Assembly (NCBI GenBank): GCA_963787835.1
Contig: CAWBEI010000004.1
Coordinates: 256,001-320,000 of the forward strand
From: Ignavibacteriota bacterium
GTDB taxonomy: Bacteria > Bacteroidota > Ignavibacteria > Palsa-1295
DNA: 64,000 nucleotides
Direction of reading: 5' to 3'
In this document: one piece after another, positions 62,547 through 64,000 of the stretch
Numbering within the stretch: the stretch's first letter is position 1
Layout: each line of letters begins with the position of its first letter
Program-made: the position numbers and the translations under genes
The notes under the pieces: model-generated
Seen by the model: only the letters and a program-made list of their open reading frames with translations
The model's database searches: none
What the model was told of the DNA's origin: nothing

Positions 62547-63866
62547 ATGGCAATCAATCCAAGTAAACTAACAGTTAAATCGCAGGAGGCGCTTCAAGCG
62601 GCCTCGGAGATCGCGGCGAATTATGGTAATAATCAGGTCGAGCCAGAGCATTTGCTGGCTGCGCTCATTCAGGATCCTGAAGGTGTGGCGACCTCCGTGC
62701 TCCGAAAACTTGGGGTCAATATCGACCAGCTTCGCATTCGCGTGACCGGCGCGCTGGAATCGCTCCCAAAAGTGACCGGAGCGCAGGGTGCGAATCAATT
62801 TGCGTCGAATAATCTGAATAAGCTCTTCGATGTTGCCCGCAAGGAAGCCGAGGCGCTGAAAGATGAATACGTCTCCACCGAGCATTTGTTGCTCGCCCTG
62901 ATCGATGGCAATACTCCATCCTCGAAGCTCCTGAAAGAGCATGGGGTGACGAAGAACAGCGTGCTAACAGCACTCCAATCCGTGCGTGGCACACAGCGCG
63001 TAACAGATGCCAATGCGGAGGACCGTTACCAATCTCTCGAAAAATACGGACGCGATCTCACCGAAGCTGCGCGCAAGGGTAAGCTCGATCCCGTGATTGG
63101 ACGCGAGGAGGAAATTCGCCGCGTGATGCAGGTGCTTTCGCGGCGCACGAAAAACAATCCCGTGCTCATCGGCGATCCGGGAGTGGGAAAGACGGCGATC
63201 GTAGAAGGCATTGCGAATCGGATCGCGTCCGGCGATGTGCCAGAGGGACTCAAAAGTAAACGCATCGTTGCGCTCGATATGGGAACGCTTGTCGCCGGAA
63301 CCAGTTTTCGTGGGCAGTTCGAGGAACGATTAAAGGCGATCGTAAAAGAAGTTGCGGAGTCCGCTGGAGAAATAATTCTCTTTATCGATGAACTCCATAC
63401 GCTCATCGGCGCGGGCGCTACGCAAGGCGCAATGGATGCCGCAAATATCTTAAAGCCAGCGCTAGCACGCGGAGAACTGCACACCATCGGTGCAACCACG
63501 CTGGATGAATACCATAAGCACATCGAAAAAGATGCCGCACTCGAACGCCGGTTCCAGCCCGTCTTTGTTGGCGAGCCAAGCGTGGAGGATACCATCTCCA
63601 TTCTGCGTGGATTGCAGGAAAAATACGAAGTGCATCACGGTGTTCGCATCCGGGACGCCGCGCTTATTGCCGCCGCGCAGCTTTCGGATCGCTATATTGC
63701 CGACCGTTTCCTTCCCGATAAAGCGATCGATCTCATCGACGAAGCCGCCAGCAAGCTCCGCATCGAAATAGATTCCATGCCCGCCGAACTCGATCAGATC
63801 GAACGTCGCATCCGCCAATTAGAGATCGAACGCGAAGCATTGAAACGGGAGCAGGCGGCAGTTTAA
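62547..63866 (+). CDS. clpB: ClpB N-terminal half (N-domain, NBD1 and start of M-domain); NBD2 absent
   Basis: Clp_N repeats, [55 protein letters not shown]; ends [16 protein letters not shown] at 439 aa. Confidence 0.9.
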
Positions 63867-64000
63867 TGAAAAATATGCAAGAAATTTTGGGTGGTGAAAA
63901 ACCTTATGTATTTGGTACCCACTCCGCCGAGCTTGAACGGCTCGGACTTCAGCATCGCGTCTGGCGTCCGGATGTAACCGATGCTTGGCGGCGCGCGGGA
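63866..64000 (+). CDS. Probable class I SAM-dependent methyltransferase, 5' part (runs off the window)
   Basis: ATG overlaps the clpB stop (TAATG); [45 protein letters not shown] matches the YVLG...E.ERL..Q N-terminus of a methyltransferase family; the SAM motif itself is beyond the window. Confidence 0.7.
   Translation, partial: MKNMQEILGGEKPYVFGTHSAELERLGLQHRVWRPDVTDAWRRAG

Follow-up and report, generated by a model that had tools for sequence, protein, structure and literature searches.

The window, as we call the whole stretch of 64,000 nucleotides analyzed here, ends with a puzzle: its last complete gene encodes a ClpB that stops in the middle of the M-domain. ClpB/Hsp104 is regarded as a motor made of one chain and controlled by a switch, the coiled coil of its M-domain. 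This raises the question of whether the gene is the remnant of a broken clpB, a smaller protein in its own right, or one part of a ClpB whose other part is encoded elsewhere.

The gene (62547..63866, forward strand like all features of the window named in this paragraph; defined by open reading frame, profile and alignment) encodes 439 residues comprising the N-domain, NBD1 and helix 1 of the M-domain. Its NBD1 carries a Walker A motif, GDPGVGKT (residues 209-216; 63171..63194), of which G209 and G212-T216 are invariant in 40 of 40 N-halves; a Walker B motif recognized from the sequence, FIDE (residues 279-282; 63381..63392); and the tandem arginines R334/R335 (63546..63551), also invariant in 40/40, which correspond to the arginine-finger pair of NBD1 according to an excerpt of PMC4239642. 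The TIGR03346 ClpB profile matches over positions 1-429 of 853 with 683.6 bits, the cut-off being 1232. M-domain helix 1, placed by a single-chain model and alignment at residues 412-438 (63780..63863), is the predicted inter-chain arm of the coiled coil and contains E435 (63849-63851; E. coli E432) and likewise A431 (E. coli A428). The stop codon TAA lies at 63864-63866, and its final A also opens the next ATG (63866-63868), giving a TAATG overlap (63864..63868) at the conserved fission point. The earlier note had described a ClpB frame of 439 residues that ends within the M-domain in such an overlap, and we confirm this, the stop falling after helix 1. The stop is crossed, with 0 differences, by two short-read contigs of a single study (X1, 63617-64000; X2, 63756-63947), which thus speak against a chimeric join, with the reservation that the runs behind them may be the assembly's own source. 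An RNA run (X12) yielded only short pieces of relatives. The position of the stop is not due to chance, since complete N-halves end at a nearly fixed distance from the same invariant glutamate, 2-15 residues past it in 54 of 54 and within 2-7 residues in 53 of these.

The remainder of the protein is encoded elsewhere in the source genome (G000). Searching this genome with its own ClpC and PF07724 revealed a second gene (G000:C5:305540-306883, forward strand, outside the window), whose 447-residue product comprises M-domain helices 2-4, the last NBD1 helix and NBD2. It has its own ATG, starts at M-domain helix 2, carries the NBD2 Walker A motif GSTGVGKT and scores 646 bits with TIGR03346 (cut-off 1232). 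A frame of this kind, running from helix 2 through NBD2, had been anticipated in the earlier note and does exist, but not in the place expected: the 15 kb past the window end contain no ClpB-like frame of at least 150 residues, and instead of following an intervening gene, the second half sits on another contig; in relatives, too, it is unlinked. Each half is at least 49 kb from contig ends, the C-half in mid-contig. A full-length clpB is absent from the source genome, whose sole full-length class I Clp is ClpC-like (on C2); the genome has one dnaK above the TIGR02350 cut-off and one paralogue.

The two halves fit each other closely. Aligned to E. coli ClpB, the N-half covers residues 4-433 and the C-half 433-850, which means that the pair amounts to the whole protein, with neither a gap nor an overlap. 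Neither gene encodes a single polypeptide of ~860 residues above the TIGR03346 cut-off; together, they supply the N-domain, two AAA+ modules, intact Walker A/B motifs, arginine fingers and pore loops, and the four-helix M-domain is complete when helix 1 from the N gene is added to helices 2-4 from the C gene. The best NCBIfam and PDB match is ClpB, not ClpA/ClpC, and the N-half is 63-72% identical to the N-parts of intact ClpB of the class versus 45% to the ClpC of the same genome. All domains and motifs of the canonical ClpB/Hsp104 (TIGR03346; E. coli PDB 4D2Q, T. thermophilus PDB 1QVR) are therefore present across both genes; the difference is that the genes are two and unlinked, and the chain is broken in the distal loop between M-domain helices 1 and 2. 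Aligned to Hsp104, the N-half ends at 436 and the C-half begins at 440, and both ends fall inside this loop, which an excerpt of PMC3887210 assigns to residues 430-446. Structure prediction of each half alone (mean pLDDT 77 and 82), used for secondary structure only, gives a C-terminal helix at 412-438 in the N-half, and in the C-half an N-terminal helix at 4-63, then helices at 66-97 and 107-118. Judged from these comparisons, the frame in the window is the N-terminal gene of a ClpB encoded by two unlinked genes, an ancient and conserved arrangement.

The same division is found in many relatives. Among 41 genomes searched with TIGR03346, 25 of which belong to the family of the source genome (f1, G000 included), a full-length clpB is present in 11, all outside this family (0 of 25 inside). 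Within the family, the N-half was found in 22 of 25 genomes and the C-half in 20 of 25 (four partial or frameshifted); G013 and G016 (85% and 74% complete) have the N-half only, and neither half was matched in G019, G023 and G024 (97, 98 and 70% complete). The near-complete G019 and G023 appear to have lost both halves jointly. Five genomes of four other families in this search also have a split clpB. In a phylum sample of 401 genomes, 396 matched the M-domain profile and 310 of these gave open-frame lengths; in ten families, all 122 genomes have a frame shorter than 600 residues, and of the other 188 genomes, 181 have one of at least 850 residues, with families grouped by code after the lengths were known and with kin that are not independent. 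Of the seven exceptions (528-765 residues), the two that were inspected are intact across the junction. All 85 matched genomes of the family taken as Chlorobiaceae (from three named proteins, the rest by family code) have a frame of split length. Split-type proteins occur in Chlorobaculum tepidum, Chlorobium phaeobacteroides, Prosthecochloris aestuarii and Chloroherpeton thalassium, and further in Ca. Thermochlorobacter, Ca. Kapabacteria and Ignavibacteria bacteria. When 30 split genomes were retested, 29 had both halves and the remaining one had a frameshifted C-half; none had a full-length gene. The same breakpoint is seen in finished genomes as well. A homologue search whose length filter excluded full-length proteins returned 118 split-type heads among 120, a measure of spread and not of frequency. 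In a scan of 80 ClpB loci across GTDB, which is dominated by generic ClpB motifs and serves as a control only, 78 were intact, one was split (Chloroherpetonaceae) and one was cut by a contig end. One locus stands apart (L075, G034:C175): here, a second, divergent ClpB-like gene of 877 residues, with ~40% identity to the halves, accompanies a normal clpB. The halves are never adjacent; they are 5.9 kb apart in G028, in reversed order in G010 and more than 1 Mb apart in G001 and G052. The naturally split, two-chain ClpB suspected in the earlier note is thus supported by a partner gene and by a breakpoint kept in relatives, the same one throughout the family, its Kapabacteria relatives and the matched Chlorobiaceae.

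Both halves are under strong purifying selection. Within the genus, dN/dS is 0.025 for the N gene and 0.042 for the C gene (6 pairs, 4 genomes), and in Chlorobaculum it is 0.024 and 0.063 (3 pairs); the control with intact ClpB is one pair only. Those parts whose retention would make sense only in chains that meet are no less constrained, the values in the genus being 0.012 for helix 1, 0.050 for helix 2 and 0.003 for the NBD1 helix of the C chain. A431, R434 and E435 are kept in 54/54 complete N-halves; among C-halves, R11, L12, I15, L22 and W33 are kept in 42/42 and Y74, the counterpart of E. coli Y503, in 41/42. In E. coli ClpB, E432A is repressed and Y503D is hyperactive, as stated in an excerpt of PMC4023160. 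Between 13 split and 13 intact representatives, the split set spanning two classes, mean identity is 0.68 versus 0.73 for the N part and 0.63 versus 0.67 for the C part, and equal for helices 1 and 2. Among family representatives, split (n=11) versus intact (n=15), R429 is present in 11 versus 9, L432 in 11 versus 7 and I15 in 11 versus 9; position 436 is hydrophobic in 10 of the 11 split forms and, among intact forms, only in four with long loops. Tighter residues at the new ends would fit a compensation for the lost loop, which is suggestive only. The cut removes the counterparts of Hsp104 437-439, and the conserved loop aspartate has no counterpart; Hsp104 D438 mutants lose collaboration with Hsp70 (excerpt of PMC3887210).

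How could two chains do the work of one? We propose that they very probably come together again as a DnaK-dependent hexamer, held by the coiled coil and by the NBD1 small subdomain. Helix 1 of the N chain would pack on helix 2 of the C chain in the usual antiparallel coiled coil, and helix 107-118 of the C chain would complete the NBD1 small subdomain, making two non-covalent clasps in all; six N+C pairs would then form the usual two-tier ring. Repression would act through E435 (E. coli E432), and Y74 of the C chain, the counterpart of E. coli Y503, would be the site of activation by DnaK. The split would persist because the cut lies at the tip of the loop and because, once the genes were separated, neither half could be lost alone. 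A precedent for separate pieces is the engineered T. thermophilus ClpB made of NBD1-M plus NBD2; by the title of Beinker et al. 2005, it is said to need no covalent linkage for chaperone activity. That cut is artificial and lies between the AAA+ modules, whereas in nature the chain is interrupted within the regulatory coiled coil, and the NBD1 small subdomain is shared between the two chains. The two T. thermophilus parts, NBD1-M and NBD2, can be produced separately (PMC4239642, in excerpt). In Cba. tepidum, S(0) globules subjected to shotgun proteomics yielded both CT0089 (clpB-2) and CT2281 (clpB-1), according to Table S1 of PMC12285230, and from genome position we infer that they are the C- and N-half, respectively.

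Several observations count against reassembly. The halves share no operon, nor a CIRCE-like site that could match their amounts; of the regions preceding the gene in 56 N-half, 46 C-half and 27 intact rows, none comes closer to such a site than six mismatches. The genome scan gave a single CIRCE-like site (G000:C2:1777033, 1 mismatch), which is near neither clpB half. The counterpart of Hsp104 D438 falls in the gap, overall conservation is slightly below that of intact relatives, and the published engineered split lies between NBD1-M and NBD2, outside the M-domain. The C-halves of G001, G006 and G149 are frameshifted. Each of these genes (L060, L071 and L230, respectively) has a single frameshift in a few-contig assembly, which may be a long-read error.

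We considered three other explanations. First, the halves may now be independent single-ring AAA+ proteins, or partners of ClpC or others, with no joint machine; we regard this as improbable. Human CLPB/Skd3 is a single-NBD disaggregase and offers a precedent, and the two genes are unlinked and share no CIRCE. In addition, T. thermophilus NBD1-M oligomerises and hydrolyses ATP without NBD2, according to an excerpt of PMC4239642. However, that construct has the complete M-domain together with the last NBD1 helix, and the N chain does not: the NBD1-M module extends to residue 534 (same excerpt), a position matched by about residue 118 of the C chain. The NBD1 small subdomain thus has its last helix past the M-domain, in the C gene, so that the N chain alone would have an unfinished NBD1, and this argues against the stand-alone ring that the earlier note had offered as an alternative. 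The orphan helices 1 and 2 and the NBD1 helix of the C chain are also as constrained as in intact ClpB, the halves co-occur (29/30) and are jointly missing in two near-complete genomes, and no new domains have been acquired.

Second, the pieces could be rejoined after transcription or translation, by a trans-splicing intron or a split intein, into one ClpB chain; this is very improbable. The pieces do abut almost exactly and no domain is lost, but the N-halves have only 2-15 variable residues past E435 and the C-halves 6-14 before R11, thus leaving no space for intein halves, and the gene that follows the N-half overlaps its stop or adjoins it in several genomes, which leaves no space for part of an intron. 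No intein N- or C-parts are fused to the halves, and a search of the junctions of six loci found no Rfam family, and hence no group I or II intron RNA flanking the exons. Cyanobacterial DnaE, the product of a fractured gene rejoined by split inteins, is likewise a single-chain protein from two distant genes across a lineage; with no intein at either end here, joining would be non-covalent. Third, the clpB gene could be broken and in decay, or the assembly chimeric, and only the single-base frameshifts in the C-halves of three relatives would favor this. It is scarcely credible against one breakpoint across ten families and finished genomes, dN/dS below 0.07, identical short-read contigs over the stop and both halves at least 49 kb from contig ends, and we rejected it, as there is no relaxed selection, variable breakpoint or chimeric join. 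The two outcomes by which the earlier note said its idea would fall, a chimeric join in reads across the junction and a full-length clpB elsewhere beside a decaying copy, were not observed: two short-read contigs cross the junction without such a join, neither the full-length gene nor the decaying copy was found, and dN/dS shows no decay.

The surroundings of the break do not explain it. The N-half is followed by a methyltransferase-like frame, a HAD-IB phosphatase and PgeF. The first of these, a SAM-methyltransferase-like gene of 277 residues with weak NCBIfam matches, all below cut-off, starts at 63866 on the forward strand and runs through the end of the window (63866..64000) to the equivalent of 64699. 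In 22 family genomes, the gene next to the N-half is the methyltransferase in four and the HAD gene in seven, with others or none called in the remainder; where the HAD gene is directly next, the same one-base overlap occurs twice. The methyltransferase was rejected as a part of the system, since it adjoins the N-half in just 4 of the 22; it is a passenger inserted in the clpB-N/HAD neighborhood and did not cause the break. Just upstream of the N-half (window 62371-62510) and of the C-half (G000:C5:305401-305522) lie palindromic (REP-like) repeats, different at the two sites and both dispersed, with 53 and 30 BLAST matches in the genome. As they are dispersed families, their reading as relics of the fission, which is far older than the source genome, is not supported. 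Divergent from the N-half on the reverse strand (60047-62522) are an ABC ATPase gene, which we take to resemble LptB, and its upstream gene, presumably OstA/LptA-like. Farther upstream, a gene on the forward strand (50722-57303) encodes a protein of 2193 residues with long collagen-like Gly-X-Y tracts interrupted by short WxxGxGxP modules; the tracts are followed by 14-residue repeats, which we assume resemble the heads of trimeric adhesins. About 2 kb beyond the C-half of locus L010 is a cobalamin riboswitch (L010:13191-13418, forward strand; 92 bits), and downstream of it is a 680-residue open frame resembling a TonB-dependent receptor.

When did the gene break? An RpoB tree of 35 genomes requires two changes to account for the split state, and the split forms make up two clades: the Chlorobia (support 100), and the source family with two further families and those of Kapabacteria (83). 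Around the second clade lie intact lineages of the class; a union of both clades survives the topology test (p-AU 0.056). In a ClpB tree built from 55 genomes with the junction columns removed, p-AU is 0.011 for a single clade of all split forms, which is rejected, and 0.37 for a single clade of the non-Chlorobia split forms, which is not; the ClpB trees, that of the C-half included, are quick searches under LG+G4, which over-rejects somewhat. Two independent fissions at one loop would be the simplest reading, which the trees favor without proving it; the alternative is one fission followed by re-fusion or replacement. Intact relatives mostly have the canonical seven-residue loop, and four families have loops of 14-18 residues, indicating that the loop tolerates change. 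These long loops (L013, L015, L019, L211 and L212, in f13, f8, f12 and f17) lie exactly at the fission site, and the same loci share with the split forms a hydrophobic residue that follows the counterpart of E432; these loops may be re-fusion scars or independent loop expansions. Building on two fissions, we tentatively suggest a fuller scenario, which we hold to be possible but doubtful: the clpB gene would have been cut independently in the green sulfur ancestor and in the ancestor of Kapabacteria, the source family and two Ignavibacteria-class families, resulting in a twelve-chain (6+6) disaggregase in which free helix ends at the M-domain tip would retune both repression and activation by DnaK, and the relative output of its two genes, each expressed separately, could set the activity.

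The two halves are in the databases under separate names. In Cba. tepidum, the 'Probable chaperone protein ClpB 1' (UniRef100_Q8KG79, 438 residues) is the C-half and 'ClpB 2' (UniRef100_Q8KA87, 442 residues) is the N-half, with the same breakpoint and the same kind of system. A 2007 paper states, in the excerpt available, that only one Chlorobi species contains ClpB (PMC1887533), which suggests that the Chlorobi halves were overlooked. Among the best matches listed by a full-text literature search, whose scope did not extend to subscription journals and UniProt comments, there was no description of a natural ClpB split, and the excerpts of PMC1175084 and PMC1636346 contain nothing on it.

Point mutations in the distal loop repress the enzyme or block collaboration with Hsp70 (excerpts of PMC4023160 and PMC3887210). 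A natural cut across whole lineages would show that chain continuity is dispensable at the M-domain switch. It would also call for a correction in annotation, as full-length models score split genomes as being without clpB, and the halves are labelled as two ClpBs, ClpA or AAA ATPases. The split ClpB would be a natural two-part reagent, in which wild-type and mutant NBD1 and NBD2 tiers may be mixed to probe inter-ring allostery, and a cultured model, Cba. tepidum, is at hand.
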